A stretch of DNA of 64,000 nucleotides from Adineta vaga (Eukaryota > Animalia > Rotifera), in the NCBI GenBank assembly GCA_021613535.1, contig CP075492.1, forward strand, positions 8,133,653-8,197,652, in the 5' to 3' direction. Of the stretch, positions 12,996 to 45,398 are shown in pieces; the stretch's first letter is position 1, and each line of letters opens with the position of its first letter. The notes under the pieces were generated by a model. That model was not told the origin of the DNA. It ran no database searches and was given only the letters and a program-made list of their open reading frames with translations. The position numbers and the translations under genes are program-made.

Positions 12996-13815
12996 TGCAT
13001 TTTACTCTCATATTAGTTTAAAAGCAAGAATACAAAAATAAATAAGTAACATTGACATTTTGAGATAATTGGATAAAATGTTAAAGAACGGATGAGGATA
13101 TGATTGAGACAAGAATATTTTTACTGACAACTCGGCCGTTACTTATTCCGAATTCTTACTGAATTTTATGAGAAGAAAATAAAATATTTAAAAAAATATT
13201 TGGCATCAAAAGCTATTCTGGTGTTTTCTCTATTAACGAAAAAGGTGTGTGAATGAAAACTCAGGTATGCATATATAAAAGAACTTAAATCCAAATCCAA
13301 GATATAAATCGTTTGAGTCAAAATTGAAACTTCTGCTATCCAAAACATATACAGAATCTTCATTTTACAACTGTTGATATATGTGAGGAAGTGCATCAAG
13401 ACATCGAAAGAACTCATATACGCATCTCCTTGAAATAGCAGTTCACCAAGTAACTCTAAATTATTCTGCTCGTTTCATGTGAACGCTTAACATGAAAAAC
13501 TGTACATTGATTACACTCGCCTAATAGGGCATTCTCTTTTCATCAAGACAATACATGCTAGAATAAGCACTGAACTTTTAAATCAAACAATCAAAGACAG
13601 AAACTCATATACTGTACCACAGGGTTTACGTCAATGTTCAGTCACTGATTATATTTATTACAAAAAGTTAAAAACTGGATATTTCATTCACAAAAATTCA
13701 AATCACAATTCATATATGAAGTCTCAGTTCTTTTTCACCGGTAATCATCAAATGAAATTCTTCAAACATCTGCACTTCTCAGTCTGGAAAATTCCGCTCT
13801 CTGATCCATATAAAT

Positions 13816-19800: not shown

Positions 19801-22800
19801 ATATATTCAATGAGATTTACTTGATATTGCTTTTTCACTACTTTCACTTTCCATCTGATTGAGTTGTTGTGAAAGTGATGTAAGAACTTGTCCAACAACA
19901 TTCTGATTTCCACTTGAAAGTAATTGTACCATTGGATTATTTGACAATGCTGCATCCGATGAACTCATTTGTACATTACTCATCAAATCATTCATGCTAA
20001 CACTATCAACAATCACTTGAACAGATGACATATTCACTTCTGTCACACAATCAACAAGATCTCGAACATAAATAATCATATGTAATAATGATGTTTGTTC
20101 ATCTCCAGCTGGTAACCGAACTTGAAATTGAGAAACAGATGAAAATGCAACCATTACTTTCTTTGATATATCACTTGTCCATACTACAATCATCATTTTA
20201 TACAAACATACATACATACATTGATCATATTCACAAACTTCTCTACATACCATATAATGAATAATCTTTGACTCCATCTTCATCATACCAATTGGGACAT
20301 GAAACAGTAAATGAACTTGTTGTTGTTCCATTCTTTGGATTCATCGTGCATGAACCATTCGAAGGCGATTGATTGATAACAAAATTCAATGCACTTGTAC
20401 TTGATTCATTTGCAAATTGATAAACAACTTCGAATCGCCATAATCGAATACTTGGATTATCAACAAATAAACGATATGATGCTGTAAAGTTACTTGTATT
20501 GCTTCCTAAAAAAACAAATGCATTTTCATTTTCATTCACACAAAACAACAACAACAACATCTTTACCAAAAAACCAAATATTCTCATATGTAATCATTCG
20601 ATCGAACAAAGTCCATTGAGTAGAATTCGAAGATGAATTACTATCACTTTTATAAATATTCCAATGAATATCGACAAGATTTTCACAAACTCCAACACAA
20701 AATGCAAACAATGCAACTTGTGTTGTTGGATTGACTAGTTGAAATTCAAGATTTGGTGAACATAATGTTGATATCACACAACTACAAGTACATGAAAACA
20801 GATCATCACATATATCTAACACTTAATCATTGAAATGACTTTACCCAATAACAACCAATTTTGGAAGTGTATCTTCGATTGTCACAGTAACAAAGCCTGT
20901 GGCTTGAATCGAAGCATTCTTGCGATTTTCCATATAAACCATGAATTGATACATTTGATTCGATTGAAGAGTACCAGACAGAAGTGTTAACGATGATTTT
21001 GGTGAAGAAGTCAAATTACCAAAGATTAAACCTGTTCCATTATCTTTATTTCAATATAAAATGAAAATAGATAGAAATTCTCATCAATCTCTATTCACCA
21101 TTCCTACCTGACCGATCCGACAAGCATGATGGATTCAATGGATCACTTTTCGAATTTTCAATTGTTAACAATCGTCCTTGACTATTTGGAAAATTATATG
21201 AACCATACCATCGACAATAATAGTCATATTTCCATTTCTAAACCAAAATAAAACATCATTTCATGCAATAAATACTCCTACAAATTCCAATAAACAACAA
21301 TCAATTCTTATCTACACGAATAACTGAGCATTGCCAAGCACAAATCTGCTCTTATCAATGATTGACTTACAAATGATCATCATTATCTACTAACATTCAT
21401 TTCAGTATAAAAATGTTAATTTATGACGATAGATTTCTATGCATGATCAAAAGATGACTGTTACTTACACTTGCATCGAATGCATCTTCATCAGGATCAA
21501 CTGAATACGATCCTGGATCAAGTTCAAGATCTTGTTCTTTACCACGTGTGATCATCGATGTTCCCAATGGAACAGGATTTGCTGTAATTCCTGATGGAGT
21601 TATCATGACATGAACTGAAGAAGATGATTTTGCACTTGGAAACTGTTTCATTGATACAGTTAAAGTCAGTTCATACATTCCATAAGCAAAAGTTCTTGAT
21701 GGAGCATAGAATTCACTCAACGTTGTACGGATCTTGTCACTCAATCCAATTCGATAGAGACATGAAGTCGAAGTACAATTCTTCACTGACCATTGTATCA
21801 GAGTTGTAAGTGATGCATTACAACGAAACTGAATTGTTGAACTGATGGAAAAATCTTGATTTCGTCGATATTGCAGTGGTGATGTCAAAGATGATCCACC
21901 AGGAATAAGTGTAATCGTCGGTGAATAACAAACTAATATTCAAATAACAAACATATACAGTCATAGTTTATGTCTTGCTACTGTAATATAATAATGTCAG
22001 ATATAGTTACCTTTGAACTCTTCTGTTGTTGTTACTGATGTTGTGGTTGACATTGGGTCATCTAAAAAGAATATATAGATATTTTCAGAGAGAGACACAA
22101 TGAACAACTATTTCAAGATAAATGAAAGTGATTAACATACCGGTAGACGTAATAGATGTAGTAGATGTTGCGGTGGATGTTGAAGTGGATGTAGTGGACG
22201 TGCTAGTAGACGTGCTGAATGAGGTGGTGGACGTGCTAGACGTGGTGGTGAATGTGCTGGTGGACGTGGCGATAGTAGTACTGGTGGACGTTGAAGTGGA
22301 TGTACTGGATGTGGTGGAAGACGTCGTAGTGGACGTGCTAGACGAGACGGTGGACGTACTGGACGTGGTGGTAGACGTCGTACTGGACGTGCTCGTGGAC
22401 GTTGAAGTGGATGTTGAACTGGATGTGATAGTGAATGTACTGGACGTGGTGGTAGAAGTACTGGTGGACGTTGAAGTGGATGTAGTGGACGTGGTGGTAG
22501 ACGTCGTAGTAGACGTGCTGAATGAGGTGGTGGACGTGCTAGACGAGATGGTGGATGTACTGGATGTGGTGGAAGACGTCGTACTGGACGTGCTCGTGGA
22601 CGTTGAAGTGGATGTTGAACTGGATGTGATAGTGAATGTACTGGACGTGGTGGTAGACGTCGTAGTAGACGTGCTGAATGAGGTGGTGGACGTGCTAGAC
22701 GAGATGGTGGATGTACTGGATGTGGTGGAAGACGTCGTACTGGACGTGCTCGTGGACGTTGAAGTGGATGTTGAACTGGATGTGGTGGTAGACGTGCTAG

Positions 22801-25800
22801 TTGAGGTACTGGATTGTGTTGCACTTGTCATCAAACTCGTTTCTTGCATATTATTTGTTCCAGTAGCTACTGTTGTTGGCACGCCAGATGTAAAAGGCAT
22901 CATACTCGTTTGAATCGTCGTCGGTGAGCCTGCAAATAATTAAGTTTAGACAGGTATTTCTTCACTCTAACACAGAACTAGTTGCTCAATATCACTTATT
23001 ATCTCTCTTTCAACAACTATGATATTCTCACTACTACTTCTTCCTCACAACAATTACTTACTACAATTCGTTTTCTGAGCAGAAAACATTTGAATTCGAC
23101 TATTATTTCGATCAGCAACATACATATTCCCATAACTATCAAATGCCATACTTTGTGGAAATGACAATTGACTTGCACTTGAACCACTAATACCATTACA
23201 ACCAACAATACATCGAAATCCATAAGGACCTGATCCAATGATTCGATGATTATAACTATCCACAATAAATAAATAACCGCTTTTATCCATCACAACTCCA
23301 CTAGGACAACGCAAAGTCATATCTCCGGATGATGAACCATTGCCAACAACAGTCTCTGCACTCATTTGTCCTATTGCTGACATACGCTGAATTCGATCAT
23401 TTCCACAGTCTGCAACATACAAGTTCATATTGCTATCCACATAGATTCCTTGAGGAAAACTAAGCATATTCGATGCTGATCCTGCACTTCCATTTCCTAA
23501 TATCACCCATGGAATACTTGTACCATTATTCAGTGAAACTTGTACTACTTGATGAATATCACGAAGTGAACAATACAAAGAATTATTACTATCAACAAAT
23601 AAACCATAACAACTTCCGTTCACCTTCATTACAGTCGTTACAATTGATGAATTAAATGAAAACTTATCTACTCGACCATTTGCATATCCATTATCAACAT
23701 AAACATCACCAGCCAATGAAACAAAAGTACTGTATGGACGATTCAAATTACCAGAGTTATTTCTTGTTGGTGTACTATCATACTGTGACCATATTAAAAC
23801 AATGTTATTCGATTGACTTGCAACATAAACAGTATTGATTCCATCAATGAAGATACCATAGGGTAATGAACCAATAGTAGTACTCGATGCAAATGTTGAT
23901 GCATTGGCAAACCATGAAGCATCGAAACAAAAGTTTGGTTGATTGTATGAAATACCTAGATGGACAAATGCATCAATTACCATTACAATAAAGTGTCTAC
24001 ATCAAAGAACGAATAGAAAACATCACTCACTACATGAATTGCTTGCTAAGAGAAACTTTTGAACTCGATAATTGACTTGATCAGCAACAAAGATATTTCC
24101 ATAACTATCGAAACTGAATTCTCGTGGACTATTCAGTTGACTAGATGATGAACCTGCAACTTTTGTACAACCAAACAAACATCGAAATCCATATGGACCT
24201 GATCCAATGAGTCGATTATTGTAGTTATCAGTTACAAATAAATATCCATTACCATCAAATGCAATATCATTTGGACAGTCAAATGTAAAGGTACCTGGTG
24301 CACCATTACCAGCTATGGTAATAGCATTCATTTGTCCCAAAGGAAACATTTGAATTCGATCATTACCACAATCTCCAACATATAAATTAAACTGATAGTC
24401 AACATAAATTCCACAAGGATAGTAAAGATCGCTTGCAGCTGAACTAGCACCACCTGTACCAGCTGCTATTGTATTAGTTGTGTCATTATTAGACAACCAT
24501 TTCTTTGCAACTCGATGACTGCCAGTCATTGAACAGTAGAGAGTATTAGTTGTGTCGACAAACAGATCATAACATTGTGCAGTAATTGTCATAGCCGATA
24601 TACCACTCGTGGAACTTGGACCCCATTTGTCTACTCGACCGTAACTGAGACCATTATCAAGATAAATATCACCGGAAAGTGTTGCGAAAATACTTAATGA
24701 TCCATCCATTCCACCAGTCAAATTTCTGTCAGGAAGAATACTTCCTTCTCTCCATACATATGATTGATCATTTAGCCAGCTAGGTATATAAACAGTATTA
24801 TTAACATCAACGAAGACTCCATAAACATAAGTATTAAGTATTCGAGTGTCTGCAAAAGTAACACCATCAGTATACCAAGTGGCGGATGGACAAAACTTCG
24901 GCTGATTGAAAGAAAAAGCTAGAATGAAACAAATAAAACTTAATGAGAAGAAAAATCACTACCTTCATGTCATGTCATCAATGTTTAAACATAGTTTTCA
25001 ACAAAGACTCAATTATAAGAAATCGTTCGTGAGATCAAAATCGACCACTCATTCGCATCATCAATATCGCTCATTGAACAGTCGATATATTCACAACTAT
25101 CTATCACCCTATTACTGAGTACATCATACTTACGATAAGTCGTATTTGGTTGTAGAATAAACTTTTGTATACGATAATTAATTCGATCAGCGACATAGAT
25201 ATTTCCATAGCTGTCAAAACTCATAGTTGATGGCAAATACAAACCACTTGATGTGCTACCAGCAGCGCCTGTACATCCAACTAAACAACGAAAACCATTC
25301 GATCCTGATCCAACAATACGATGATTACTACTATCCAAAATGAACAAATATCCATCACCGTCCAGCATCACATCACTAGGACAACTGAGTGAAATGGTCC
25401 CTGCGGCTGATGCACCTGCTATTGTAGTTGCAACTAATTGCCCTGATTGAAAGAGTTGAACGCGATTATTGCCACAATCAGCAACATACAGATTGAGAGA
25501 AGTGTCTACAAAAATCCCACGAGGCAAATAAAGCTTATTAGCAGTTGAACCAGAACAGTATGTTCCAGCACCGATAGTCCACATCGTAGAATTGTTATTT
25601 AACGATGTCATTGCAACTTGATGATAATCATACAATGAACAATAAAGATTGTTGCTGACATCAATAAAAATATCATAACATATATATTTAACAGACATGA
25701 CTGATGTTCGTATTGTTCCATTTGATGTATATTTATCAACACGCTTATATGAATATCCATTATCAATATAAATATCACCTGTTACTGTAGCAAAAATACT

Positions 25801-28800
25801 ATATGTATAGCCCACATCAGTTGTTATAGTACGACTAGGTGTAGTGCTTCCTTCGAGCCAAATTTGAATCTTGTTATCACCTCTATTTGCAACGTAGACA
25901 GTATTGTTTTTATCGACAAAAATACCAAAGGGTTCGACGCCCACTGTTGTACTCGTAGCGAATGTAATTGCATTTCCACTCCATATTGCATATGGACTAA
26001 ATTTTGGTTGATTGTATGAAATAACTATAACAAAATCACATTATATTTGGTTTTCATCGGGAGTTTTTTGACAACTGTGAAATTCTTCTACCTCAAAGTT
26101 ACTCATATAAGTCCTGTTGCGACGAAAACTGCATCATCATGATGCATATCATCGTTCTTTTATAAATAATCGAAATCAACAAAAGAGGAAATAGAAAAAT
26201 ACATGCATGTGTATGATTTATGTTGTCTCTTTCGACGACGAAATGAGTAGTGAATCTGATGAGAAACTTGCAATATCAATCTTTTTGTCCTTGTCATCTC
26301 TAATAGTAGAATAGATGATATAGATCATATAGTATCAGTGTTTGTCATAAGCTTTCTTACAAACGATGATCTATCATGTCAACTGAAACGGTAGTCTTAT
26401 TATTCGTAATCTCGCATGTATCATATTGTTAACGTAGCAGCTCTCGGAATTCTATCTTTTTCTCTCTCTCTCTCTATCTACCTTGTTATCTTTGTTTTCT
26501 ATTCTTCTATACATATATATATATATGTGTGTTCTTGTATGAAGAGGTTAGTTAGGTTTTTATTTTATATAAATAAACATCGTCAGCTCGAATACGAGCT
26601 AACATATTGGTGCCGTGACCGGTCTTTTTCTATTTTTTTCCATCGAAAAAGAATCAAGTACCAGGTCTTTATAAACTCATCCTTCATCAGGAAAGAGTGA
26701 TTATTATTTCATCCGTGACGGAAAGAGAGTCAGGTGAATTCATCAATCAAAATTATTAATTATAATTACTGAAATTATTCAGTCGAAGAAGGTATAGTAT
26801 TCTTCACATATACGATTCGCTTTCATTCTTTGAAAATATCTATACGAACACGGCTGACGGCATTCGAAGAAGAACAAAGAGAATAAGTGCAAACCTTTAT
26901 CCATACGAAATAATAACGTAATCATCAAAACAAACACGTCGGCAAAACACACGAAAAATTTGTCTATACACAACATGACGAAAGACACCGCATTAAACAA
27001 TACCTCGACGAACGAAACGCACTCGGACGATACGATGACGAAAAACACCTCGATGCTGATGGGAGCAACGAAAAATACCTCGACCGATGTGAACCCGATG
27101 GAACTTCGACAATTACATTCCAGTCAACAGGAAGCCATGAAGAAAATTAATGAGTATTCGGGAGAATCTAATGAATTGGATATTGATGAATGGTTATATG
27201 ATCTAACTAATTTATTCTCGCTAATGCAATTACAAGATGAAACAAAAATATTGTTGACGATGGGAAAATTAACCGGATCAGCATTACGATGGTATCAAGG
27301 AAATTTAACATCATTTGGTGATTGGAAGGAAGCAGAAGAAGCATTACGAGATCGATTCAAAACATTCACGTCAGATGGTCAATTAGTACAAGAATTCTTC
27401 CAGCTTCGACAAGAAGAAGATCAATCAACTACAGCATTTTACGATATGGTTATGCGCAAATATCGAAAAGCAAGTGGATTAGTTACTGAAAAACAAATCA
27501 TTACGGTACTACAAGCAGGTGTGAAACATTCATTGAAGGAACAATTAATTCGAAATGAAGTTAATATCTCGAAACCCGAAGAATGGCTGCTGATGGCAAG
27601 GGAAGAAGAACATATACAACGACGAATTCAACAACGCAATACACCACCACGAGCAGCAACACAAATACCATATTTCGAATCAACATTACCGACGGCAACA
27701 ATTCAACAATCATCATCGCATCGCCGATACGCACAACAACATGCCGGTGGAAATCAACAGGAATATCAACCATATGAACGACGTTCAAGTACAGTACGAC
27801 AACAACCAAATAATCGACGGAATACGACTCAACGGTCGAAACCATGTTTAATCTGCAATCGAACGAACCATTCGACGATGCAATGCTTCTATAAGAAGGA
27901 AGATGGTTGCTTTAGATGTGGACAGTCAAATCATCGAATACGTGATTGTCCGCAACGTTATTTTTTCGAGTAAAGGGATCGGTTGATGGCGACGATCCTT
28001 GTGGACTTCAAAAGTCATCATCATCGACAACAACATCAACATCATCACTTACAACAACAACTGAAACATACAATCCAATCTTTGTCAAAATCTTATGCAA
28101 TAATACTCCACAAGAAGCACTAATCGATACAGGATCGGCCATCACAATAATTCACAAACGTCTATTGAACAAGATCCCGCACAAACAATTTATACCACGA
28201 CTAAAGAATCATCTATCAGCCAGTTGCTCAGCAGTGAACATTATCGGCGAAGTAACATTATTCATCAATATCGAAGGAATTACGACTCAAGTGACTGCTG
28301 ATGTAGCAACAAATCTCGTTACAAATTTAATACTTGGTAGTGATTGGATTCAAACAAACAATGTATACATATTAACTCCCGAAAAGCGAATTATGATGAA
28401 AAAACGAGGTAGAGAAGTATCAACTCCTTTTATAAAACCACCAATTTTGAACTATCCAGCAACACTTGTTAATTATATTACACTTTCTCCTTTTTCAGAA
28501 CACATTATAGAAGCTCAACTGCAACAAGAAAAGATAGTCGATGCATTATTTGAACCAAATCCTCATTTACAACGTAAAGCATTATTTATGGCATGTACAT
28601 TACTTAACATCAACGACGGAAAAGCAACGATCAGTATCATAAATGCAACGAATCGACGACAAACACTTTCGGAAGGCACACGGATTGGTATGGTGACACA
28701 GATGGCAAATTCGGTTAATCTTATAGTACCATCGAACCATCCCGATGAACGCATTCCGAAAGGAAAAGCGTGTGAACAGCTCATTCCGAAAGGAAAAGTA

Positions 28801-31800
28801 GCGAATGAAGGAATTAGCAATGCCAGTTCGGAACATCGACAGACAACAACAACAGACAACACCGAGCACAAATGTCGAAACTGTTCACAACGATTCGTCG
28901 CAAAGAACGATTTATTCAAACACCTGCGTGAACAATGTTATCCTGATGAAATACGGGAACAAATTGGAAAATTAACTTCACATATTTCCGACGATACGCA
29001 ACGAAACAAGATCACGAATGTCCTATGGAGATACGGAAATTTATTCGATCTTCGACAACCATCAAAGATTGACATTATTTTGAAGAATGCAATCGACACA
29101 GGTATTCATAGACCAGTACATACTCCACCATATCGCAAATCCAACAGAGACCAAGAAACATTACGTGAAGAAACACAAAAACTACTGGAAAATGATATTA
29201 TTGAACATTCAACGTCGCCATGGTCATCACCTGTAGTACTAGTTAAAAAGAAAGATGGAACAACAAGATTTTGTGTAGATTATCGTCGACTCAATCAAAT
29301 TACAACTAAAGATGCTTTTCCATTACCACGAATTGATGATATTTATGATCAATTAACCCAAGCAACATATTTTAGCAAATTTGATTTCAAAGCAGGTTAT
29401 TTTCAAGTACCATTAGACAAAGCCGATCGACCAAAAACAGCATTTTCTACAAGAGATGGTCATTTCCAATTCAAAGTATTACCACAAGGACTTACAAATG
29501 GACCACCAACTTTTCAACGAATTGTCAATCAAATACTCGGTCCGAATCGATGGAAGCACATGTTGGCATACATCGATGATATTATAATATATTCACGAAC
29601 ATTTCTTGAACATGTACAACATATTGAAGAAGTATGTTCATTATTGCATGACGCAAATTTCAAGTTAAATATAGTAAAATGTGAAATCGCACGTACAGAA
29701 ATATTATTTCTCGGACACATCATCAAGCAAGGTACAATTCAACCAGATCCAGAAAACATCCGTGATTTAGCAGATGTTCGTGAACCAACATCAGCAGAAG
29801 AGGCATTCCGATTCGTCAAAGCTGCGGAATATTATCGCAAATTCATTCCAAAATTCTCGATCATTGCAGCACCACTACACAAATATTCACCAACAACATT
29901 ACAACAGCAGAAGAATAACAAGAAAACAAAATTCGAAATAACAGAAGAAGCACGAACAGCATTTCATCAACTGAAGCACATCTTAACAACGGATCTTATC
30001 CTCAATTTACCTGATGATGATATGCAATTTAAATTACAAACGGATGCAAGTGTCGATGGAATTGGTGCTGTTCTATTACAAATTACACCAAACGGTGATC
30101 GACCACTAGCATACATGTCGAAGAAATTAACCAAAACACAAATTAACTGGCCTACCATCGAACAAGAATGTTATGCAATTGTTCAAGCTGTGGAGAAATG
30201 GGACAAATATCTTCGTGGACAGGAATTTATTTTAGAAACAGATCATGAACCATTAGTCCACTTCAACAACAAAGAACAACTGAACAAAAGGTGTGAACGT
30301 TGGCGATTGCGACTAGCTGAATATCGATTCAAGGTGAAGCATATACAAGGTAAGAAGAATAATATGGCAGATTATTTATCTAGATCACCGGTGGAAATAG
30401 CTCATGAAGATAACGACGACCGACTTCAATATGAAACGAAATCAACACAAACAGAAACATCATCACCAACGTCCAACCATGAACATCCACCTGTACGAAT
30501 AATCACAGCTATTACACGAGCTCAAGCAAAATTACAACAGCAGAATGAGCTCATCCCGCAAGGGAAAGAAGCGAAAACTCAATCGGAGGATGATCCGAAT
30601 CGGATCATACCCTTCGATTTGGACGATCTCAGGGAAGCACAGGAACGAGATGATGTCGTGAAACAAATTAAAACCAACATCAACAAACAAAAGCAATATA
30701 CAATAGAAGACGGATTATTATTACGAAGACAAAAATCATCAATTTTAGCAGTACCATTTGTTTCACAGGGAAGAATGCGTGCTGATATTTTGAAAATTTA
30801 TCATGATACACCTGGTAATGGTGCACATTTTGGTCGTGACAAAACAGTACGAAAAATACAAGAACGATATTACTGGCCAACAATGACAGCAGATATTGAA
30901 AATCATGTCAAATCCTGTTTACCATGTGCACAGAACAATCATCGTCGTCAAAAACCACCAGGAAAATTACAACCAATACCACCACCTGATGGAATATGGA
31001 AAGTACTTAGTATGGATTTCCATGGACCAATAAATCCAACAACACGACGAGGTAATCGATACATTATATCATTAACCGATGTCTTATCAAAATTCGTCAT
31101 AACAAAAGCAGTTCGCGATTGTTCAGCAAAAACAACAGTTGATTTCCTTACCAACGATGTTATCTTGAAATATGGAACACCAACATGCATTTTAACTGAT
31201 AATGGTACTCACTTCACAGCAGAAACAACGAACAATTTACTTATGAAACTTGGTGTCACTCATTTATATACAACAGCTTATCATCCACAAACAAATGGAC
31301 AAATTGAACGTTTTAATGCAACAATGGATGGTAAAATAGCATCATTATGCAACGAACAACGTACAGATTGGGATGAAATGTTACAATTCGTTACATTTAA
31401 TTACAACACATCCATACATGCAACAACAAAACATACACCATTTGAAATGATGCACGGTCGACAAGCTAGTCTTCCATTCGATCAACAACGGACACTTATT
31501 TCACTTACAAACGACACTGAACATGGAGAAAAACTTCGAAATTACCTGGAAAAATTAACAGATGATGCACGGAAAAATATTCATAAATCTCAGCAACAAT
31601 ATAAGACTCGATATGATCAACATCGACAAGAATTATCGATCAAAATTAATGATTTAGTCCTGATTAAAACCAGAAGTTTTCGAAACAAATTCGATATTAG
31701 GTACGAAGGTCCATTTCGAATTATCGAACAATTAGGAAGAAAAACATTCATTGTACAACATGTGAAGAAAACAACATTAACAAAACAAGTTACAATGGAT

Positions 31801-34800
31801 GTCATCGTTCCATTAGTAGAACGATGGAATTTACATGACTAAACACATCCCACTAGGGAAAGGTGTAAATCGACTGTGAACATAATTGACTTCATTAAAA
31901 TGTATATTTATATTTATATGAATAAAATACATGAATTTGATTTAGCAGATCATGTCGGGGAGATAGGTTTCCCCTTCTCACTGATAAGATGGGGCTATCA
32001 AAGATATATATATATATCACATAGTCATATATGTATAAGCGACATCTATTTTTTTCTATTCATATGAACATTTAATCGATATATCATGGCGATCACGTGC
32101 AGACGACATGATACGACGGATGATCCATATGGACGAAGCCGATTACCTTACAAGAACACGACACGGTCGATCTCACCACATCACAGAACAGGAAAGAAAA
32201 AGATGTAAACAAGATCATATAGTCATGCCACTTTCATCTATACGCGTATATGACGACGCGAGTATTTATATATATATATATACCCAGGTCGAAAAATCCG
32301 AGCCGGATCCGGTCGGAACCAAAATATTCCGGTCATTTCATGGAAGCAGGATTCCGACCCGGATATTTTCGGATTTTTCCACTCGCTTCTGACTAACTTC
32401 CAGTAAGTTCCAGTCGGAAAACGACTGGAATTCACCAGAACAGTCCGAGAAATTCCGATCGGAATACTGCTTCCACTCTCCTTTGTTTTCCGGTTGGAAC
32501 CTTTTGGAACTAGCTGAAACCGTCCGGAATATCCTCGGAAATGCGTGATTTCTGGCAGGTTCCTTTCGGATCCGGAGGCCGGAACGTCCGTTCTGGGTAT
32601 AACGGACAGGAAAGAAAGAAAAAAGGACAACAAAGGAATGAAAAATTTTAGGAAACGAAAAACAAAAGCATGGAAAATTACGAAGAAAAACAGAAGAAAG
32701 AAGAACGAAAGGATAACCTTTCACCGGAGTGACCGTCGCCAGACTATCAAGTAAATCACTTTATTTACTTTATTTATTTTCTAATAGTAGAATGCACTCA
32801 ACAAAATCACCAAAATCAAGCTGGATGAGAAACCAACGACAGATGGAGAAGAATGAAGAACTTCGAGGATTACATCCCGAATATCGTCCATCAGCAAATC
32901 TCGAAATTGTCCACGTACATCATCGATCGACCATACAATCAATCGAAGAATTAATAAAAAAGGCAATACAAACAAGAAGATTCGTCGTCGATACAGAATC
33001 TCAATGGAAAATATTACGAAAAGGTGAACCTCGAACAAATGGAGCTTTGATCCAAATCCAGATGATACATTCACCAAGCAAGTCAACAGTGGTCCTCATC
33101 GAAACATGTTATCTACCAGGCACAACATCAACGTTATACAAGAAAATCAAACAATTGTGTGACACCATCTTCGACAACAACAATGAAATTATCACATGGG
33201 GACCAATCGAGCAAAAATTTGAGCCTTTTCATCATTTAAATTTCATTCATTTAGGAGCAATTCGTGAATGTGACTTGCAATTCTACATTAGCAATCCAAG
33301 TCAAATTTATGATTCGCATCCAGAAATGGAAAGGCGAGAGACAACCGGAAATGTGTCGATGGAAATCAACACACCTGGTGATGAACTTATCGTCCATGTG
33401 GACGAGGATGATTTGTGGAACTTCGACGATAATCTCGGTAATTTTCGAAAAAAAGAAAAATTGAATCCACCTTTAGGTTTACAAGCCGTCGTGGCCGAAA
33501 ACTTCAACAAATTTCTGGACAAATCGTACACAAAAAATGAATGGAACTGTGGATTAGATCTTCATTTAGGAACATGGCAAGAAAAACGATTTAGCAAAGG
33601 TCAATATGATAAATATCAAGAACAACAAGAACGTACAGAAATGATACGATATGCCGTCAACGATTGTGCATCGGTTGCTGAACTTTACTTTGAAAAATAT
33701 CCGGAAACAACGAACGATTACTTGACACCACCAGAAACGCCAACAACAACAATCATTCAAATTTCACACCTGAACACAATCTCCTCTTCGAATGAACAAG
33801 AATTAAGTCAACGATCAAAATCAAATCATGGTGAGACATTGACTAAAAAAGAAATATATTTAGATCGACCAGATTTGTTATTCAAAATGAACGAAGATGA
33901 ACTTGTACAATTTCAACAACCAGTATTCGACAAAGTGGAAGAACCAGTTCAACAAGCACAACAACCAGTTCCACAACAATTTCAACGAACACCTGAAGAA
34001 GAACATCAAAAGAAGAAAGAAAGACAAAGGAAGAAGAACGAAAAATACAAGGAGAAGAAAAGAACTCGTCCAGATTTTATAAATCGTCTAACAAGACCCA
34101 TCTACTACAAATACAACTACCAAAAAATTCGAGCTCAACTGATAGACGATGAAATACATCACACACATCAAATCAACATTAATGAAGACAAAGATGCAGT
34201 GACGATCAACTTCAAGTCCCGAGAGTTACTTGAAGCAGCAAGAACAAAAATGCGGGTGAATTATTTTTCAGAAAATCAATACTACAGGAGATGGGGAAGA
34301 AGAAAAGAAGAAAAAAAGAAGAATTAGTGGTGGTGGTGATTCACATGTGTGAGGACACACGATCTCATACTGGTGGGGAAGAATGTTAACGTAGCAGCTC
34401 TCGGAATTCTATCTTTTTCTCTCTCTCTCTCTATCTACCTTGTTATCTTTGTTTTCTATTCTTCTATACATATATATATATATGTGTGTTCTTGTATGAA
34501 GAGGTTAGTTAGGTTTTTATTTTATATAAATAAACATCGTCAGCTCGAATACGAGCTAACACATATGATTTGTGAGATCTATGCATTGATCAACTATTCA
34601 AAAGTATGATTGTCTCTCATACTCTTCTCAACTTGTTTTTTTTCCTTGATCGATTTTCATCAATCATTCTCACTGACCTTTCCAACAACTTATTCATAAT
34701 TCACTATCGATATTTGCACCCTTAGAATTATAGTTCAAAAGATCTGTACGAAAAAGTACACTAAACAATCAGATTACCATTTGAATAAGAACTTGGCACA

Positions 34801-36262
34801 GAGGATGCACTTGTTGGAATGATGCTCGATGATGCTGTTACTAAAAAAGGATAAAAGCAATTGTTTATCAATATCGAAATGAGAATGAGAGTGTGATTAA
34901 CATACCAGTAGCAGTTGTTGTTGTAGTTGACGTTCCATCTACAATAAATAAACTTGCCTTTAATTGTCATATTAAGATCGCTGATAAAGACAGATCTAAC
35001 TGATGAACTATCTAAGCTATTCTCATTTGGAATATACAAATAGTTCTATTCTAATAAACAAAGTCTCAATCAAGTCTGAACAGTATCTTGCAGAGAAATA
35101 ATTGTACTTACTACAAACATTTGTTGATATAAGAAATTTTTGAACTCGATTGTTATCTCGATCAGTGATAAATATGTTTCCATAAGTATCGAAACTGAAA
35201 CTCGATGGACTATCTAATTGAGAAGATGATGAGCCACTTCCACTGCATCCCAACACGCAGCGAAAACCATACGGTCCAGAACCAACAACCCGAAAATTCT
35301 CGCTATCGAGAATAAAAAGATAACCATCAGCATCAAGTGCTACATCTGTAGGCGAATTGAGTGTAATAGTTCCTGCAGCTGAAGCACCTGCTACAGCTGT
35401 TCCAGTCAGTTGACCATATGCATACAATTGAATTCGATGATTGCCTGAATCCGCAAGATATAAATTCAGATTGATATCAACAAAGATTCCGCGTGGATAA
35501 CAGACTGTTGTCGTTGTGGATCCGCAAGCAGCTGTACCTGCTACAATGCTCCAAAGATTTAAACGATTAGTCAGTGAATTGCTGGAAACTTGATGATTAT
35601 CATACATAGAACAGTAAAGATTATTATTCGTATCAATGAAGAGATCATAACATGTTCCACATGTATACAACGCTGGGATGCTGTCAGTAGAATTCGTTTG
35701 CCATCGATCAACTCTATTATTTGTTTGGCCATTGTCAACAAAAATATCACCATTATCAGTGGCAAACACACTATATGGAAGATTTAAACCACTCGAAAGA
35801 TTTCGAATAGATGTTGTACTTCCTTCTAACCACACATGAACTCGACTGGATTCGCGATTTGCTATATAAACGGTATTGTTGGAGTTGACAAAAATACCAT
35901 TAGGAGTTGAGCCAACAATTGTATTTGTTGCAAATGTTAAGGCCGTTGCATTCCATGATGCATTCGGACAAAATTTTGGTTGATTGTACGAGATAGCTGA
36001 AAAAGAAAAAAATGACAATTTTCGCTCTAAACAAATTACTCATATCAATCTTTTCTAACTGATCCATTTCTCTCCTCATATTTGTCTCTCATGAGAATTG
36101 TTCAGTACAAATCTCTCGACAAAAACTATGACTATTATCAGCAACATCTATCTCATTTTGACAATGAAAACAAGAAAACACAATCTTTCAAAGATACTTA
36201 CCAACTGCTCCATCAATAATCAACAAAAAACACCAGAAAGTGAGATGATGAAATCTTGCCAT
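13816..36262 (-). CDS. Very large multi-exon gene for a secreted polycystin-1/REJ-like (PKD1-like) receptor-channel with four N-terminal NHL beta-propeller modules; spans the LTR retrotransposon, which sits in one of its introns
   Basis: Exon chain traced by eye. Signal-peptide exon, then NHL1, two S/T linker exons, an intron containing the LTR element, then NHL2, NHL3, NHL4. These are followed by the S/T tandem-repeat exon, a 51-nt exon, the REJ-region exons, GPS+TM1, PLAT, TM exons, the polycystin extracellular domain, the 6TM channel and a C-terminal tail. All N-terminal exons checked are phase 1-1 with canonical GT/AG. Exon boundaries in the REJ/TM region were not all traced. Confidence 0.6.
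14036..14797 (-). CDS. PKD-channel (TRPP-like) pore-forming transmembrane exon
   Basis: Multiple TM helices with the polycystin cation-channel pattern (FFRFNHRVSLFTETLRIAANELIQFFLMFSIVYMSYLTLFYLLF...GPFCFTLFIFVVVFVCLSMFLSIINDSF). The C-terminal tail exon at 13816..14001 probably ends the gene. Confidence 0.6.
   Translation of the reverse strand: MYLAFTSVLQIVCTILCMLFIIYFMKVEIQSVIQLKTRYFRQFWSIIQIGIIVCSWTSVGVYIWRFRESARVSNLFEKTNGYVYINLQLAAYVNDILTYLLGYCCFFGMIKFVHFFRFNHRVSLFTETLRIAANELIQFFLMFSIVYMSYLTLFYLLFVSKLSSCSSLLSTAQMLFEITLMKFDATELIEAGAFLGPFCFTLFIFVVVFVCLSMFLSIINDSFRRAKETRIEDQIILSFMWKKFIQYTGKSVY
14825..15472 (-). CDS. Polycystin (PKD1/PKD2) extracellular loop domain exon
   Basis: TIEQYWNWLENSFVDNLRAQQWYNGD...YVGEHETYRGGGYVYEFRGS...QLEWIDSKTRAVFIQMTLYNPNV, the conserved polycystin-domain pattern between channel TM1 and TM2. 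Confidence 0.6.
   Translation of the reverse strand: MTIEQYWNWLENSFVDNLRAQQWYNGDAARYLNGYLNDKSNRLIGWAMMRQLRIKTELCDDQRLITRCEHSYSIFNEDKRSFEPGWINETTMVTMSGGKYSSSIMKAFRYRSSDELDTYAYVGEHETYRGGGYVYEFRGSLSDMKKNLSQLHQLEWIDSKTRAVFIQMTLYNPNVKLLTSVTLLTEFLLTGGVFPSARFDPINFYSKYFLIIVCN
16921..17133 (-). CDS. PLAT/LH2 domain exon of the PKD1-like protein
   Basis: IRIWHDNSGAGSSASWYLKYIIVRDLETMEKFYFIAQKWLAVEQDDGRV, the typical polycystin-1 PLAT signature (WHDNSG...SWYL...V.DL.T...F.....WLAVE.DDG). Confidence 0.65.
   Translation of the reverse strand: MNVKKRIDEMIFRSLGLLNYIRIWHDNSGAGSSASWYLKYIIVRDLETMEKFYFIAQKWLAVEQDDGRVS
17477..17707 (-). CDS. GPS motif plus first transmembrane helix of the PKD1-like protein
   Basis: ECLSNHLTTFAGGFIVLPAPINWSYVF (C-x-C/H-L-T-x-F-A...L GPS consensus), followed by VYLTMICTSVLYIILMIYGRFKDKKD. 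Confidence 0.6.
   Translation of the reverse strand: MTNHYETECLSNHLTTFAGGFIVLPAPINWSYVFANADFMKNKTVYLTMICTSVLYIILMIYGRFKDKKDIEKVNM
21421..21965 (-). CDS. REJ-module exon of the PKD1-like gene (approximate bounds)
   Basis: Acceptor tattag|TTTGTTATTCACCGACG. The sequence SPLQYRRNQDFSISSTIQFRCNASLTTLIQWSV...YGMYELTLTV matches the REJ (receptor for egg jelly) module pattern. Further REJ-region exons run between ~18000 and 21250 (ORFs 18084..18512, 18545..18937, 19807..20331, 20243..20587). Confidence 0.5.
22141..22929 (-). CDS. Mucin-like Ser/Thr-rich exon (789 nt, phase 1-1) of the PKD1-like gene
   Basis: Acceptor ttatttgcag|GCTCACCGACG. Almost pure S/T composition with about five copies of a 52-aa unit. 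Ends ...ACC G|GTATGTTAATCAC. Confidence 0.6.
22200..22830. repeat. Tandem repeat, period 156 bp (52 codons), ~4-5 copies, encoding the S/T mucin-like region
   Basis: The string gacgtgctgaatgaggtggtggacgtgctagacgagatgg recurs at ~22516 and ~22672 (156 bp apart). Diverged copies lie at ~22213 and ~22360. Confidence 0.7.
23062..23955 (-). CDS. NHL beta-propeller cassette exon 4 (894 nt, phase 1-1)
   Basis: A 75-nt intron ends at ccatctag|GTATTTCATACAATCAACC, giving SISYNQPNFCFDASW. NHL blades are present (YGNMYVADRNNSRIQMF, GYLFIVDSYNHRIIGSGPYGFRCIVGC). It ends ...TNC+A at a |GTAAGTAATTG donor. Confidence 0.65.
24031..24918 (-). CDS. NHL beta-propeller cassette exon 3 (888 nt, phase 1-1)
   Basis: Acceptor ttcattctag|CTTTTTCTTTCAATCAGCCG gives (P)FSFNQPKFCPSATW. 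NHL blades are present (YGNIFVADQVNYRVQKF, GYLFVTDNYNNRLIGSGPYGFRCLFGC). It ends ...NSC+A at a |GTGAGTGA donor. Confidence 0.65.
25134..26024 (-). CDS. NHL beta-propeller cassette exon 2 (891 nt, phase 1-1)
   Basis: Acceptor ttgttatag|TTATTTCATACAATCAACC gives IISYNQPKFSPYAIW. NHL blades are present (YGNIYVADRINYRIQKF, GYLFILDSSNHRIVGSGSNGFRCLVGC). It ends ...PNTTY+C at a |GTAAGTATG donor. Confidence 0.65.
26427..26604 (+). repeat. 5' LTR (178 bp, TG...CA)
   Basis: Matches 34384..34561 exactly by eye. Contains (CT)7 and (AT)7 microsatellites. The six-frame ORFs 26416..26700 and 34349..34609 are simply the two LTR copies read through. Confidence 0.8.
26608..26619 (+). promoter_or_regulatory. 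Primer-binding site complementary to the 3' end of tRNA-His
   Basis: TGGTGCCGTGAC lies 3 nt after the LTR. Its reverse complement GTCACGGCACCA equals the canonical eukaryotic tRNA-His 3' terminus (...GAGTCACGGCA-CCA). Confidence 0.6.
26975..27973 (+). CDS. gag (capsid/nucleocapsid) with two CCHC zinc knuckles
   Basis: ATG at 26975. Zinc knuckles CLICNRTNHSTMQC and CFRCGQSNHRIRDC lie near the C-terminus. The stop is at 27971..27973. Confidence 0.75.
   Translation: MTKDTALNNTSTNETHSDDTMTKNTSMLMGATKNTSTDVNPMELRQLHSSQQEAMKKINEYSGESNELDIDEWLYDLTNLFSLMQLQDETKILLTMGKLTGSALRWYQGNLTSFGDWKEAEEALRDRFKTFTSDGQLVQEFFQLRQEEDQSTTAFYDMVMRKYRKASGLVTEKQIITVLQAGVKHSLKEQLIRNEVNISKPEEWLLMAREEEHIQRRIQQRNTPPRAATQIPYFESTLPTATIQQSSSHRRYAQQHAGGNQQEYQPYERRSSTVRQQPNNRRNTTQRSKPCLICNRTNHSTMQCFYKKEDGCFRCGQSNHRIRDCPQRYFFE
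27946..31842 (+). CDS. pol polyprotein: aspartic protease, reverse transcriptase, RNase H, integrase (Ty3/gypsy order)
   Basis: Protease LIDTGSA. RT motifs FSKFDFKAGYFQ and YIDDIIIYS. RNase H TDASVDGIGAVL. Integrase zinc finger H-x4-H...C-x2-C (HDTPGNGAHFGRDKT...CLPCAQN), DDE core (SMDFHGP ... LTDNGTHFT ... E) and a GPF/Y-like tail (RYEGPFRIIEQLG). Confidence 0.85.
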   Translation: MSATLFFRVKGSVDGDDPCGLQKSSSSTTTSTSSLTTTTETYNPIFVKILCNNTPQEALIDTGSAITIIHKRLLNKIPHKQFIPRLKNHLSASCSAVNIIGEVTLFINIEGITTQVTADVATNLVTNLILGSDWIQTNNVYILTPEKRIMMKKRGREVSTPFIKPPILNYPATLVNYITLSPFSEHIIEAQLQQEKIVDALFEPNPHLQRKALFMACTLLNINDGKATISIINATNRRQTLSEGTRIGMVTQMANSVNLIVPSNHPDERIPKGKACEQLIPKGKVANEGISNASSEHRQTTTTDNTEHKCRNCSQRFVAKNDLFKHLREQCYPDEIREQIGKLTSHISDDTQRNKITNVLWRYGNLFDLRQPSKIDIILKNAIDTGIHRPVHTPPYRKSNRDQETLREETQKLLENDIIEHSTSPWSSPVVLVKKKDGTTRFCVDYRRLNQITTKDAFPLPRIDDIYDQLTQATYFSKFDFKAGYFQVPLDKADRPKTAFSTRDGHFQFKVLPQGLTNGPPTFQRIVNQILGPNRWKHMLAYIDDIIIYSRTFLEHVQHIEEVCSLLHDANFKLNIVKCEIARTEILFLGHIIKQGTIQPDPENIRDLADVREPTSAEEAFRFVKAAEYYRKFIPKFSIIAAPLHKYSPTTLQQQKNNKKTKFEITEEARTAFHQLKHILTTDLILNLPDDDMQFKLQTDASVDGIGAVLLQITPNGDRPLAYMSKKLTKTQINWPTIEQECYAIVQAVEKWDKYLRGQEFILETDHEPLVHFNNKEQLNKRCERWRLRLAEYRFKVKHIQGKKNNMADYLSRSPVEIAHEDNDDRLQYETKSTQTETSSPTSNHEHPPVRIITAITRAQAKLQQQNELIPQGKEAKTQSEDDPNRIIPFDLDDLREAQERDDVVKQIKTNINKQKQYTIEDGLLLRRQKSSILAVPFVSQGRMRADILKIYHDTPGNGAHFGRDKTVRKIQERYYWPTMTADIENHVKSCLPCAQNNHRRQKPPGKLQPIPPPDGIWKVLSMDFHGPINPTTRRGNRYIISLTDVLSKFVITKAVRDCSAKTTVDFLTNDVILKYGTPTCILTDNGTHFTAETTNNLLMKLGVTHLYTTAYHPQTNGQIERFNATMDGKIASLCNEQRTDWDEMLQFVTFNYNTSIHATTKHTPFEMMHGRQASLPFDQQRTLISLTNDTEHGEKLRNYLEKLTDDARKNIHKSQQQYKTRYDQHRQELSIKINDLVLIKTRSFRNKFDIRYEGPFRIIEQLGRKTFIVQHVKKTTLTKQVTMDVIVPLVERWNLHD
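27961..27967 (+). other. Putative -1 ribosomal frameshift slippery heptamer UUUUUUC at the gag/pol overlap
   Basis: In the gag frame it reads T TTT TTC, 4 nt before the gag stop. pol is open in the -1 frame from 27946 and continues FFRVKGSVDGDD... through the heptamer. Confidence 0.5.
32280..32610. other. GC-rich island inside the retrotransposon, between pol and ORF3, dense in CCGGA/TCCGG/GGAAC/GTTCC motifs
   Basis: Local GC is far above the window background. It holds more than 15 occurrences of the CCGGA(A)/(T)TCCGG core, several as inverted pairs (ccggatccgg, tccggaggccgga). It is flanked by (TA)n runs and contains a CAG|GTAAGT-like donor at ~32404. The antisense ORFs 32238..32633 and 32338..32724 are artefacts of this composition. 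Confidence 0.5.
32792..34327 (+). CDS. ORF3 of the LTR retrotransposon: DEDDy-type 3'-5' exonuclease domain with a Lys/Arg-rich C-terminal tail (~511 aa)
   Basis: The ATG at 32792 sits directly after an acceptor-like tttattttctaatag. Exo I is FVVDTES (D-x-E) and Exo III is RYAVNDCASVAELYF (Y-x3-D), about 240 aa apart. Candidate Exo II acidic residues lie at HVDEDDLWNFDD. The C-terminus is basic: KKKERQRKKNEKYKEKKRTRPDF...RRWGRRKEEKKKN*. The stop lies 45 nt before the PPT. Confidence 0.55.
   Translation: MHSTKSPKSSWMRNQRQMEKNEELRGLHPEYRPSANLEIVHVHHRSTIQSIEELIKKAIQTRRFVVDTESQWKILRKGEPRTNGALIQIQMIHSPSKSTVVLIETCYLPGTTSTLYKKIKQLCDTIFDNNNEIITWGPIEQKFEPFHHLNFIHLGAIRECDLQFYISNPSQIYDSHPEMERRETTGNVSMEINTPGDELIVHVDEDDLWNFDDNLGNFRKKEKLNPPLGLQAVVAENFNKFLDKSYTKNEWNCGLDLHLGTWQEKRFSKGQYDKYQEQQERTEMIRYAVNDCASVAELYFEKYPETTNDYLTPPETPTTTIIQISHLNTISSSNEQELSQRSKSNHGETLTKKEIYLDRPDLLFKMNEDELVQFQQPVFDKVEEPVQQAQQPVPQQFQRTPEEEHQKKKERQRKKNEKYKEKKRTRPDFINRLTRPIYYKYNYQKIRAQLIDDEIHHTHQININEDKDAVTINFKSRELLEAARTKMRVNYFSENQYYRRWGRRKEEKKKN
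34384..34561 (+). repeat. 3' LTR (178 bp)
   Basis: Same sequence as the 5' LTR. Preceded by the polypurine tract GGTGGGGAAGAA (34372..34383) and followed by the CATAT TSD. Confidence 0.8.
34778..34840 (-). CDS. 63-nt Ser/Thr/Pro linker exon (VTASSSIIPTSASSVPSSYSN, phase 1-1)
   Basis: Acceptor ccttttttag|TAACAGC ... CAAATG|gtaatctg donor. It lies immediately upstream of the LTR retrotransposon's 3' LTR. Confidence 0.4.
34906..34938 (-). CDS. 33-nt Thr-rich linker exon (phase 1-1)
   Basis: Acceptor ttattgtag|ATGGAACGTCAACTACAACAACAACTGCTACTG|gtatgttaatcac donor. The donor sequence is the same as the one after the large S/T repeat exon at 22141. Confidence 0.4.
35112..35996 (-). CDS. NHL beta-propeller cassette exon 1 (885 nt, phase 1-1)
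   Basis: Begins (A)ISYNQPKFCPNASW after the acceptor cag|. It contains repeated NHL blades (YGNIFITDRDNNRVQKF, GYLFILDSENFRVVGSGPYGFRCVLGC). It ends ...NVC+A at a |GTAAGTAC donor. Confidence 0.65.
36202..36262 (-). CDS. Exon 1 of the PKD1-like gene: signal peptide MARFHHLTFWCFLLIIDGAV
   Basis: ATG on the minus strand at 36262. A 20-codon hydrophobic leader is followed by a G|GTAAGTA donor. An intron of ~200 nt ends at tttttctttttcag, just before the NHL1 exon. Confidence 0.55.
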
Positions 36263-44327: not shown

Positions 44328-45398
44328 ATGATTTTCATCATTTTCTTATGGATTTTAATAATAAAGATCATCTATGACAATGAACAATGTCATTCTATTA
44401 CAAAATCAATATCATTTCATAGGACTCGAAATCTTTCATCAAATCAATCGATGATTGATTCACGATTAAAACTTCATCATATGACTATTCTTGGTACTCA
44501 TAATAGTTATCATAAAGCAACACGATTTTATAAATATAAACATTCAAATCTTGACGTACAATTAATGTCTGGTATTCGACAAATTGAATTAGATATTCAT
44601 ATAATGGCGAAGAATTATGTTGTTTATCATTTACAATTTCTTGATGATCAAACAAATTGTTATTGTTTTAAGGATTGTTTATTAAAAATTCGACAATGGA
44701 GTGAACAAAATCAAAATCATTATCCAATTTTTTTATTTATCGAAATCAAAGAACGATTTTATGAAGATTTTCTCACAGCATTTCATGGTGGTCTTCAATG
44801 TCAACATTTTCAATCGATGAAAGAGCAAATTTTACAAATCTTTCCATACGATTTCTTAATCTTACCCGATTTCATTCGTGGACATCATCATTCAATTAAT
44901 ATTGCTTTAAAACACCAACGACAAGATGAAAGCCGTGGAAATTATGTTTATAAAAACTACGGATGGCCTCCAGTCTCATTGTCATTAGGAAAAATTTTAA
45001 TTAGTTTCATTGATGATCAATATAATTTAGTTGCTGATTTAATATCAACATGTCAACCATTATACAATTTCTTTTTCATAGTTCAAGAAAATGTTAGTCG
45101 TCCCTATGCATCAATTATTAACATACGAAATCCATTAGGAAATGAACAACTCATTCTTTCTAGTCAAAATCATGGACAAATAACTCGAACATTAATCGGT
45201 CATGGTAATAAACAAGCGTTCTATCGATATATTCAAGCACGAAGATATGGTGTTCATATAATTAGTACTGATTTTGTTCAATGTAATCATTCATGTTTAT
45301 GTGAAAGTATTCGAAATGATTTTCAAAATTCATCATCAAATTTATGTAATCAGATTGTTGCTCCATCATTTTGTTATTTAACGAATTCATTTCTTTGA
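44328..45398 (+). CDS. PI-PLC X-domain-like (PLC-like phosphodiesterase TIM-barrel) protein with an N-terminal hydrophobic leader, 356 aa, intronless
   Basis: ATG at 44328. N-terminal IFIIFLWILIIKII. MTILGTHNSYH matches the catalytic-His motif of PI-PLC X domains. A second His region is IRQIELDIHI. Confidence 0.5.
   Translation: MIFIIFLWILIIKIIYDNEQCHSITKSISFHRTRNLSSNQSMIDSRLKLHHMTILGTHNSYHKATRFYKYKHSNLDVQLMSGIRQIELDIHIMAKNYVVYHLQFLDDQTNCYCFKDCLLKIRQWSEQNQNHYPIFLFIEIKERFYEDFLTAFHGGLQCQHFQSMKEQILQIFPYDFLILPDFIRGHHHSINIALKHQRQDESRGNYVYKNYGWPPVSLSLGKILISFIDDQYNLVADLISTCQPLYNFFFIVQENVSRPYASIINIRNPLGNEQLILSSQNHGQITRTLIGHGNKQAFYRYIQARRYGVHIISTDFVQCNHSCLCESIRNDFQNSSSNLCNQIVAPSFCYLTNSFL

Follow-up and report, generated by a model that had tools for sequence, protein, structure and literature searches.

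A probable polycystin-1-like receptor gene from a bdelloid rotifer (Adineta vaga) with four tandem NHL propeller exons

We analyzed a stretch of 64,000 nucleotides (nt) from the bdelloid rotifer Adineta vaga, referred to below as the window (GenBank assembly GCA_021613535.1, contig CP075492.1, positions 8,133,653 to 8,197,652 of the forward strand), which contains a large candidate receptor gene. The window is AT-rich, with a G+C content of ~30% that climbs to 36 to 40% across 22 to 36 kb, and it is the minus strand that carries the long open reading frames (ORFs) at 13.8 to 36.3 kb. In the final exon model the receptor gene runs on this strand from 36262 to 13762 and has 35 exons encoding 3,619 amino acids (aa) with zero internal stops; its introns have a median length of 67 nt, and all except intron 4 span 40 to 231 nt. 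The region 22141-36262, which a first-pass annotation had singled out as a modular N terminus, is the 5' half of one bdelloid rotifer protein-coding gene; eight of the nine exons listed for it fall within this span, but the 51-nt exon lies just outside its start. Judged from frame, splice sites, and homology, the exons with NHL repeats and the downstream REJ/GPS/PLAT/channel exons very probably form one gene, whose product would be polycystin-1-like with four NHL propellers. A second copy of the receptor gene was looked for elsewhere in the 64-kb window, and none was found.

The splice junctions of exons 1 to 9 were read base by base and then tabulated, and the exons after exon 9 were chained by a dynamic-programming script and corrected against an intron-poor homologue, the metagenomic locus L004, and against the protein tails of Adineta steineri (Table 1). 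The sizes predicted for the exons following the first one (885, 33, 63, 891, 888, 894, 789, and 51 nt) are all exact, and the phase table bears out a first exon ending in phase 1 followed by exons that are each 1-1. AG acceptors are used throughout exons 2 to 9, with GTAAGT, GTGAGT, GTATGT, GTAATC, or GTAACT as donors. The junction of exon 9 to exon 10 is also in phase 1, and exon 10, which begins VCYSPTITLIPGG, opens the REJ region. Exons 2 to 9 are uniformly 1-1, whereas the 26 downstream exons from exon 10 on have mixed phases. Eight consecutive 1-1 exons set against mixed phases downstream, together with the same boundaries in homologous loci, argue that the pattern is not due to chance. 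Exon 1 encodes a hydrophobic segment (aa 4 to 22; 1.67 in a Kyte-Doolittle hydropathy scan) that probably serves as a signal peptide.

The four long exons are NHL cassettes, named NHL1 to NHL4 in order, which start with (A)ISYNQPKFC, (V)ISYNQPKFS, (P)FSFNQPKFC, and (S)ISYNQPNFC, respectively. Two cassettes depart from the proposed ending, R(V/I)QKF...C plus 1 nt: NHL2 ends with NTTY plus C and has no Cys codon there, and NHL4 reads RIQMF. Ser/Thr linker exons had been thought to separate the cassettes; such exons exist and are symmetric, but two of them (33 and 63 nt) sit between NHL1 and NHL2 and the other two (789 and 51 nt) come behind NHL4, and the introns between NHL2 and NHL3 (215 nt) and between NHL3 and NHL4 (75 nt) contain no linker exon. 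Pfam NHL (PF01436) matches all four cassettes, with E values of 7.8e-22, 3e-20, 2.6e-9, and 9.7e-20 in cassette order, and Pfam TEN_NHL gives marginal to subthreshold matches. The structure was modeled for NHL1, with which NHL2 to NHL4 share 49 to 56% identity. The AlphaFold2 model (pLDDT 93.1, pTM 0.91) has ~24 strands, and its top Foldseek matches are six-bladed NHL propellers, namely Pizza6, Drosophila Thin, Mycobacterium tuberculosis PknD, TRIM71, and TRIM2, with TM scores of 0.7 to 0.78. As predicted at the outset, and as the profile matches and the modeled fold suggest, a single exon encodes a whole six-bladed NHL propeller. The cassettes are 46 to 56% identical to one another at the protein level (58 to 64% at the DNA level), higher than the 35 to 45% estimated at first. 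Each cassette has 7 to 9 Cys residues and 3 to 9 N-x-S/T sequons, which fits a location outside the cell.

Between NHL4 and REJ, exons 8 and 9 together encode 280 aa with 84% Ser+Thr and no Cys, a segment that is long, Ser/Thr-rich, Cys-free, and tandemly repetitive, as mucin-like regions are. Exon 8 contains tandem repeats nested within one another, at periods of 201, 156, 75, 45, and ~21 to 24 nt; it therefore probably varies in length among alleles and paralogues. ORFs of 230 to 272 aa inside 22141-22929 were considered as genes and rejected, since the repeat leaves several frames open on both strands.

A profile hidden Markov model search of the downstream 2,007 aa found every domain predicted for this part, that is, REJ, GPS, PLAT, and a TRPP-type channel. 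REJ (PF02010) matches with an E value of 6.6e-37 over profile positions 2 to 450 of 452, PLAT scores 64.6 bits directly behind the first transmembrane (TM) segment, and the E values are 1.9e-38 to 2.7e-37 for Polycystin_dom and 1.1e-38 to 9e-37 for PKD_channel, the higher value of each pair coming from the same search as the REJ match quoted here. The GPS motif ETECLSNHL/TTFAGG is intact (HL/T), lies ~30 aa ahead of TM1, and is conserved in L004. A crude Kyte-Doolittle scan gives 10 TM helices after the signal peptide at a threshold of >=1.6, and the expected eleventh (LTYLLGYCCFFGMIKFV) falls just below it. In a sequence comparison with solved structures, human polycystin-1 (6A70_B; E value of 2.4e-66) ranks first, over TM1-PLAT-TM2-5; structures of PKD2L1, PKD2, and PKD1L3 follow for the last six helices, with PKD2L1 and PKD2 at E values of ~1e-56. 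The cytoplasmic tail encoded by exons 34 and 35 is matched by the A. steineri homologues P0001, P0003, P0005, and P0008. By these REJ, GPS, PLAT, TM, and channel matches, the predicted protein is a polycystin-1-like (PKD1L/PKDREJ-type) receptor/channel subunit with 11 TM segments.

Table 1. Exons of the receptor gene and parts of the retrotransposon in its fourth intron (window coordinates)
Feature	Position	Strand	Details
Exon 1, start codon and putative signal peptide (MARFHHLTFWCFLLIIDGAV)	36202..36262	-	61 nt; ATG...GTT G/gtaagt; phase 0 to 1
Exon 2, NHL cassette 1	35112..35996	-	885 nt; phase 1-1; aa 21-315; predicted complete six-bladed NHL propeller
Exon 3, Thr-rich linker	34906..34938	-	33 nt; phase 1-1
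Exon 4, Ser-rich linker	34778..34840	-	63 nt; phase 1-1
Exon 5, NHL cassette 2	25134..26024	-	891 nt; phase 1-1; aa 348-644
Exon 6, NHL cassette 3	24031..24918	-	888 nt; phase 1-1; aa 645-940
Exon 7, NHL cassette 4	23062..23955	-	894 nt; phase 1-1; aa 941-1238
Exon 8, mucin-like Ser/Thr exon	22141..22929	-	789 nt; phase 1-1; nested tandem repeats
Exon 9, linker (DDPMSTTTSVTTTEEFK)	22011..22061	-	51 nt; phase 1-1; last symmetric exon ahead of REJ
Exons 10-22, REJ and region up to GAIN/GPS	17804..21932	-	aa 1519-2557; mixed intron phases; boundaries refined against L004
Exon 23, GPS motif (ECLSNHL/TTFAGG), stalk, TM1	17489..17716	-	
Exons 24-26, PLAT/LH2 in first cytoplasmic loop	16930..17434	-	Pfam PLAT; aligns with 6A70_B
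Exons 27-31, TM2-6 and loops	15537..16879	-	Hydropathy; collinearity with L004; 6A70_B match
Exon 32, polycystin (TOP) extracellular domain	14857..15475	-	Pfam Polycystin_dom
Exon 33, TRPP-type channel: last five TM segments and pore region	14053..14787	-	Pfam PKD_channel; PKD2L1/PKD2 structures
Exons 34-35, conserved cytoplasmic tail and stop (...IDRIYMDQRAEFSRLRSADV, stop)	13762..13988	-	A. steineri tails
Ty3/gypsy-type retrotransposon with long terminal repeats	26427..34561	+	Antisense inside intron 4; 8135 bp; complete
Retrotransposon gag	26960..27973	+	Retrotrans_gag and zf-CCHC; intact
Retrotransposon pol	27946..31842	+	1298 aa; protease, reverse transcriptase, RNase H, integrase; intact
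Retrotransposon ORF3	32729..34327	+	532 aa

Homology searches used two queries, the channel region and NHL4 plus REJ. All named best matches are from bdelloid rotifers, with A. steineri first, then Adineta ricciae, Rotaria species, and A. vaga, and identity to A. steineri is 69 to 71% in the channel part and 63 to 65% in the NHL part. The channel-region query retrieved 330 clusters at E values of <=1e-20. In public databases these proteins are called "unnamed protein product," "NHL repeat containing protein," or "PKD/REJ-like domain-containing protein." Automatic models that combine NHL and REJ come from A. steineri (P0128 and P0229), Rotaria sp. (P0233), Rotaria socialis (P0179, which has EGF too), and a metagenome (P0167). 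Another model, P0221, pairs NHL and channel domains; inspection of its locus, however, shows a truncated copy, with the channel C terminus coming immediately after NHL cassettes.

The most informative homologue is L004, the metagenomic contig of P0167 (ENA ERZ778023, NODE_3974; 13.3 kb, G+C content of 31%), which has three NHL cassettes and is collinear with the receptor model over residues 21 to 3521 at 43 to 49% identity. Most introns have been lost from L004: NHL2, NHL3, and REJ lie within one uninterrupted ORF of 742 aa, and GPS through the channel end lies in one ORF of 1,187 aa. The fusion of NHL and REJ in L004 is thus independent of any splicing model. The Rotaria locus L006 is also collinear from NHL to channel, although its annotation shows five fragments. 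The 3,619-aa open frame in the window, the 742-aa ORF of L004, and the same order in L006 and in the A. steineri locus L003 all agree with the proposed fusion of the NHL exons to the REJ-PLAT-channel exons. The protein cluster of L004 has 42 members in ENA and JGI assemblies, some of them 1,240 aa long; the recurrence of this homologue in many ENA/JGI metagenomes points to an abundant rotifer-like organism in environmental samples. Directly upstream of its first NHL cassette, on the same strand, L004 has an ORF of the 7tm_1 family (rhodopsin-type G-protein-coupled receptor [GPCR]) at 2187-3089. Public models pairing NHL with EGF or with 7tm_1 exist, and since a 7tm_1 ORF adjoins NHL in L004, the A. 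steineri model P0209 (7tm_1 plus NHL) may represent merged neighbors and not a true GPCR-NHL fusion.

Several A. steineri loci appear to have lost part of the gene. In L001 (9917-14579), three NHL cassettes are followed by a REJ stub of merely 118 aa; in L002 (10212-13914), NHL cassettes abut the channel C terminus; and in L003 (1-15247), which contains two NHL-PKD genes in tandem, the REJ region passes from residue 2407 of the model straight to residue 3331. Either rapid turnover in the family or collapsed assemblies may be the cause.

How firmly can the NHL exons and the channel exons be assigned to a single gene? A number of observations count against doing so, or against a functional product. 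Reading frame and homology are the grounds for the exon joins, in particular for the join over intron 4 (8.75 kb); several exons of the REJ-GAIN part were placed by the model and corrected via the homologue, and small errors may remain; the Pfam score for GPS (22.7 bits) is barely above the cutoff of 22.5; the new retrotransposon in intron 4 could impair splicing or detach exons 1 to 4; and some paralogous loci look truncated, so part of the family may be decaying. Moreover, in the annotation of L003 a four-cassette NHL gene of 1,306 aa ends 30 nt before a separate REJ-plus-channel gene of 1,101 aa. Such an arrangement would be expected if two genes were adjacent in the window as well, with a secreted multi-NHL protein (exons 1 to 7 or 1 to 8) placed head to tail with a REJ-PLAT-channel gene and the continuity of frame incidental, and bdelloid genomes do hold very many stand-alone multipropeller NHL models of 600 to 1,100 aa. 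We consider two separate genes highly improbable. The REJ part would then have neither its own signal peptide nor a plausible first exon, whereas eight successive phase-1 junctions enter the phase-1 acceptor of REJ and no stop intervenes. The split annotation of L003 was rejected as evidence for two genes, because when L003 is spliced at canonical sites NHL4 (phase 1), an 837-nt phase 1-1 Ser/Thr exon, and the REJ exon are read through in frame, so that the join is found in that very locus. NHL, NHL, and REJ share one unbroken ORF in L004, and five independent public models fuse NHL and REJ. The two-gene split seen in annotation is regarded as an annotation artifact, and a single gene remains the favored interpretation.

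Intron 4, between the 63-nt exon and NHL2, is 8,753 nt long because an 8.1-kb retrotransposon with long terminal repeats (LTRs) has inserted into it. The LTRs are 178 nt each, begin with TG and end with CA, and are identical to each other, and the 5-bp target site CATAT is duplicated at 26422-26426 and 34562-34566. The insertion is very recent. Neither a Pfam match nor a PDB sequence match was found for its third ORF. By eye, ORF3 has DxE ("VVDTES") and Y-x3-D ("YAVNDC") motifs reminiscent of a DEDDy-type ORF3, a lead only; bdelloid Juno and Vesta elements with additional, DEDDy-type ORF3s have been described (PMC5408684).

The recent insertion is the main reason for keeping an impaired allele in consideration. 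The architecture could be real and yet the present copy disabled or decaying, with the element severing the signal peptide and NHL1 from the rest and a pseudogene under way. In favor of this possibility are the 8,135-bp element itself, whose LTRs are identical and whose 5-bp duplication is perfect, amid introns that are otherwise all so short; the truncated paralogues known in A. steineri; and the large size of the family, which may make any one copy dispensable. Against it, the 35 exons are all intact, with no stop and no frameshift, and an antisense element within an intron is a setting often tolerated. Identical LTRs also mean that the insertion is too young for decay to show either way. 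We regard a decaying copy as unlikely.

The cassette boundaries of homologous loci were extracted around tblastn matches. The pattern ag/NN-[ILF]-S-[YF]-N-x-P ... C plus 1 nt/gtaag is kept in six of seven loci, namely A. steineri L001 to L003, the Logan contig L005, and Rotaria L006 and L007; L004 keeps the boundary at NHL1 and has lost the introns NHL2/NHL3 and NHL3/REJ. Domain borders thus coincide with same-phase (1-1) introns in the window and in these six loci, the feature by which exon shuffling is recognized. In a neighbor-joining tree that included the two A. steineri genes lying in tandem, NHL3 falls with their third-position cassettes and NHL4 with their fourth-position cassettes, and NHL1 groups with one A. 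steineri first cassette. The grouping of NHL3 and NHL4 by position and not with each other indicates that the duplications are older than the divergence of these genes, in agreement with the old tandem duplications proposed earlier. The N-terminal module set probably arose when a phase 1-1 cassette, with one exon for one propeller, was duplicated prior to the divergence of the Adineta paralogues.

Cassette number differs among genes, with four in the present gene and L003, three in L001 and L004, and two in L006 and L007. The mucin exon is present in the receptor gene and L003, short in L006 and L007, and missing from L004, and an EGF-like stretch between NHL and REJ is found only in the R. 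socialis locus (L007). Variation of cassette number and mucin exon is the pattern expected of gain and loss of symmetric exons among genes; alternative splicing is not thereby indicated. The first-pass annotation pointed out that any cassette could be removed without breaking the frame, and the arithmetic holds, since all eight exons are symmetric 1-1 and dropping any subset of them causes no frameshift. The NHL cassettes might then be alternatively spliced and mutually skippable, yielding a diversity of receptor isoforms, and paralogues with 2, 3, or 4 cassettes can be cited in favor of this idea. Yet the variation observed is between genes and not between isoforms, and skipping is only arithmetically possible. 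In L004, which has neither the NHL2/NHL3 nor the NHL3/REJ intron, it is impossible, so that skipping cannot be essential to the family. Isoform diversity through cassette skipping is considered very unlikely, and gain and loss among genes is the interpretation we retain.

Other parts of the window contain unrelated genes. Three tandem, apparently intronless ORFs of 412 to 443 aa on the plus strand (1235-2566, 2833-4107, and 4455-5693) are ~26% identical to one another (E values of 4e-38 and 8e-44) and have N- and C-terminal hydrophobic segments and conserved Cys residues; none of the three matches a Pfam family, and they look like an uncharacterized local gene family. Upstream of the receptor gene, also on the plus strand, are an intronless gene for a 720-aa OPT oligopeptide transporter (39815-41977; Pfam E value of 1.5e-90) and an intronless gene for a Ca2+-dependent PI-PLC (44328-45398; PI-PLC-C1, E value of 5e-33). 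Both families are found more typically in fungi and bacteria, which makes the two genes candidates for horizontal acquisition; bdelloids are known for horizontally acquired genes. A 197-aa ORF on the minus strand (8978-9571) has a weak match to FkbM-type methyltransferases (Methyltransf_21, E value of 6e-6), a mostly bacterial family.

The core of the predicted receptor is the one shared by human polycystin-1, PKD1L1 to PKD1L3, and PKDREJ: REJ, a GPS with HL/T, TM1, PLAT, more TM segments, a TOP domain, and TRPP-like last six helices. Ahead of REJ, vertebrate polycystin-1 members have leucine-rich repeats, WSC, PKD-Ig repeats, C-type lectin, or LDL-A, and PKDREJ has almost nothing; we know of no NHL propellers in vertebrate members of the family. 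The rotifer protein differs from them in that its region before REJ consists of four NHL propellers and a mucin stalk, with no PKD-Ig repeats. Compared by description only, sea urchin suREJ and Caenorhabditis elegans LOV-1 are alike in placing a lineage-specific ectodomain ahead of the conserved REJ-GPS-PLAT-TM core. The modules of suREJ1 are EGF and C-type lectin, and the N-terminal region of LOV-1 is Ser/Thr-rich and mucin-like with no propeller; again by description, the latter parallels the rotifer stalk between NHL4 and REJ.

With respect to the propellers, the sensor of M. tuberculosis PknD and the NHL domain of teneurin resemble the rotifer protein in that an extracellular six-bladed NHL propeller is carried by a membrane-spanning signaling protein. 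PknD (1RWL/1RWI) and the PknD-derived Pizza6 are among the best structural matches to NHL1, at a sequence identity of just 20 to 27%. PknD, however, is a bacterial kinase with one propeller, in contrast to four in tandem on an ion-channel-type receptor, and teneurin has one NHL domain within a YD-shell protein. Closer relatives of the cassettes are found in the bdelloid expansion of "NHL repeat containing protein" genes: NHL models from Adineta and Rotaria, in their hundreds, are 45 to 65% identical to the cassettes and have phase-1 exon boundaries in common with them. One paper (PMC3846280) counts NHL among the repeat families with lineage-specific expansion in A. vaga, but only names it in a list, with no link to a polycystin-type receptor and no account of one exon encoding one propeller. 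In the searchable literature on bdelloid and rotifer NHL, polycystin, and PKD1/TRPP architecture, we found no description of NHL propellers linked to a REJ/polycystin protein. The suggestion that the architecture is undescribed therefore stands for this literature, but automatic models with NHL and REJ are already in public bdelloid proteomes. The combination is real and recurs across bdelloids, and it is a new domain-architecture variant on the standard polycystin-1 core, present in public rotifer proteomes and uncharacterized.

The proposed protein starts with a signal peptide, after which come four six-bladed NHL propellers in tandem, a Ser/Thr stalk that is mucin-like and ~280 aa long, REJ, and GAIN/GPS (HL/T), followed by TM1, PLAT, TM2-6, the polycystin (TOP) domain, a TRPP-type pore domain, and a short conserved tail. 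By analogy with the polycystin-1 family, the signal peptide would send the N terminus out of the cell, making the NHL/mucin/REJ part extracellular. The stalk, with its 84% Ser/Thr presumably O-glycosylated and extended, would carry the propellers above REJ and GAIN/GPS. Cleavage is probable at the HL/T of GPS, with the pieces staying associated, and PKD2-like subunits are the probable partners of the 11-TM part. It is the propellers that would likely bind ligands or surfaces, at the tip of a sensory receptor, in resemblance to the PknD sensor and teneurin NHL. A role in sensing or recognition is suggested by how many copies the family has and by how much they vary. These functional steps (cleavage, partner, ligand binding, and sensory role) are drawn from what holds for polycystin-1 relatives, and each of them is less secure than the single-gene structure itself.

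This locus is a very clean case of module duplication by symmetric phase-1 exons, with one exon per domain and with the duplications dated by positional orthologues from a second species. The finding also has a practical side. Bdelloid annotations break genes of 3,000-plus residues into "NHL" and "PKD" fragments, and the published counts of both families are therefore probably distorted. Most work on polycystin-1 relatives has concerned kidney disease, left-right patterning, sour/acid sensing, and sperm-egg recognition, and the ligands of their ectodomains are poorly understood. The receptor architecture opens no long-standing question, and the rotifer branch can be seen as a natural experiment in which the sensing end has been rebuilt, with NHL propellers on a mucin stalk in many copies, and the REJ-GPS-PLAT-channel core has been retained. 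A broader proposal, which we put forward only tentatively and hold to be doubtful as it stands, is that bdelloids have a large lineage-specific repertoire of polycystin-1-type receptors whose tips are stacks of 2 to 4 NHL propellers, sometimes with mucin or EGF, diversified through duplication, loss, and shuffling of phase-1 cassettes for environmental, chemosensory, or nonself recognition, with skipping possibly adding isoforms. If true, this would be a new class of sensory receptors in animals whose sensory molecules are essentially unknown.

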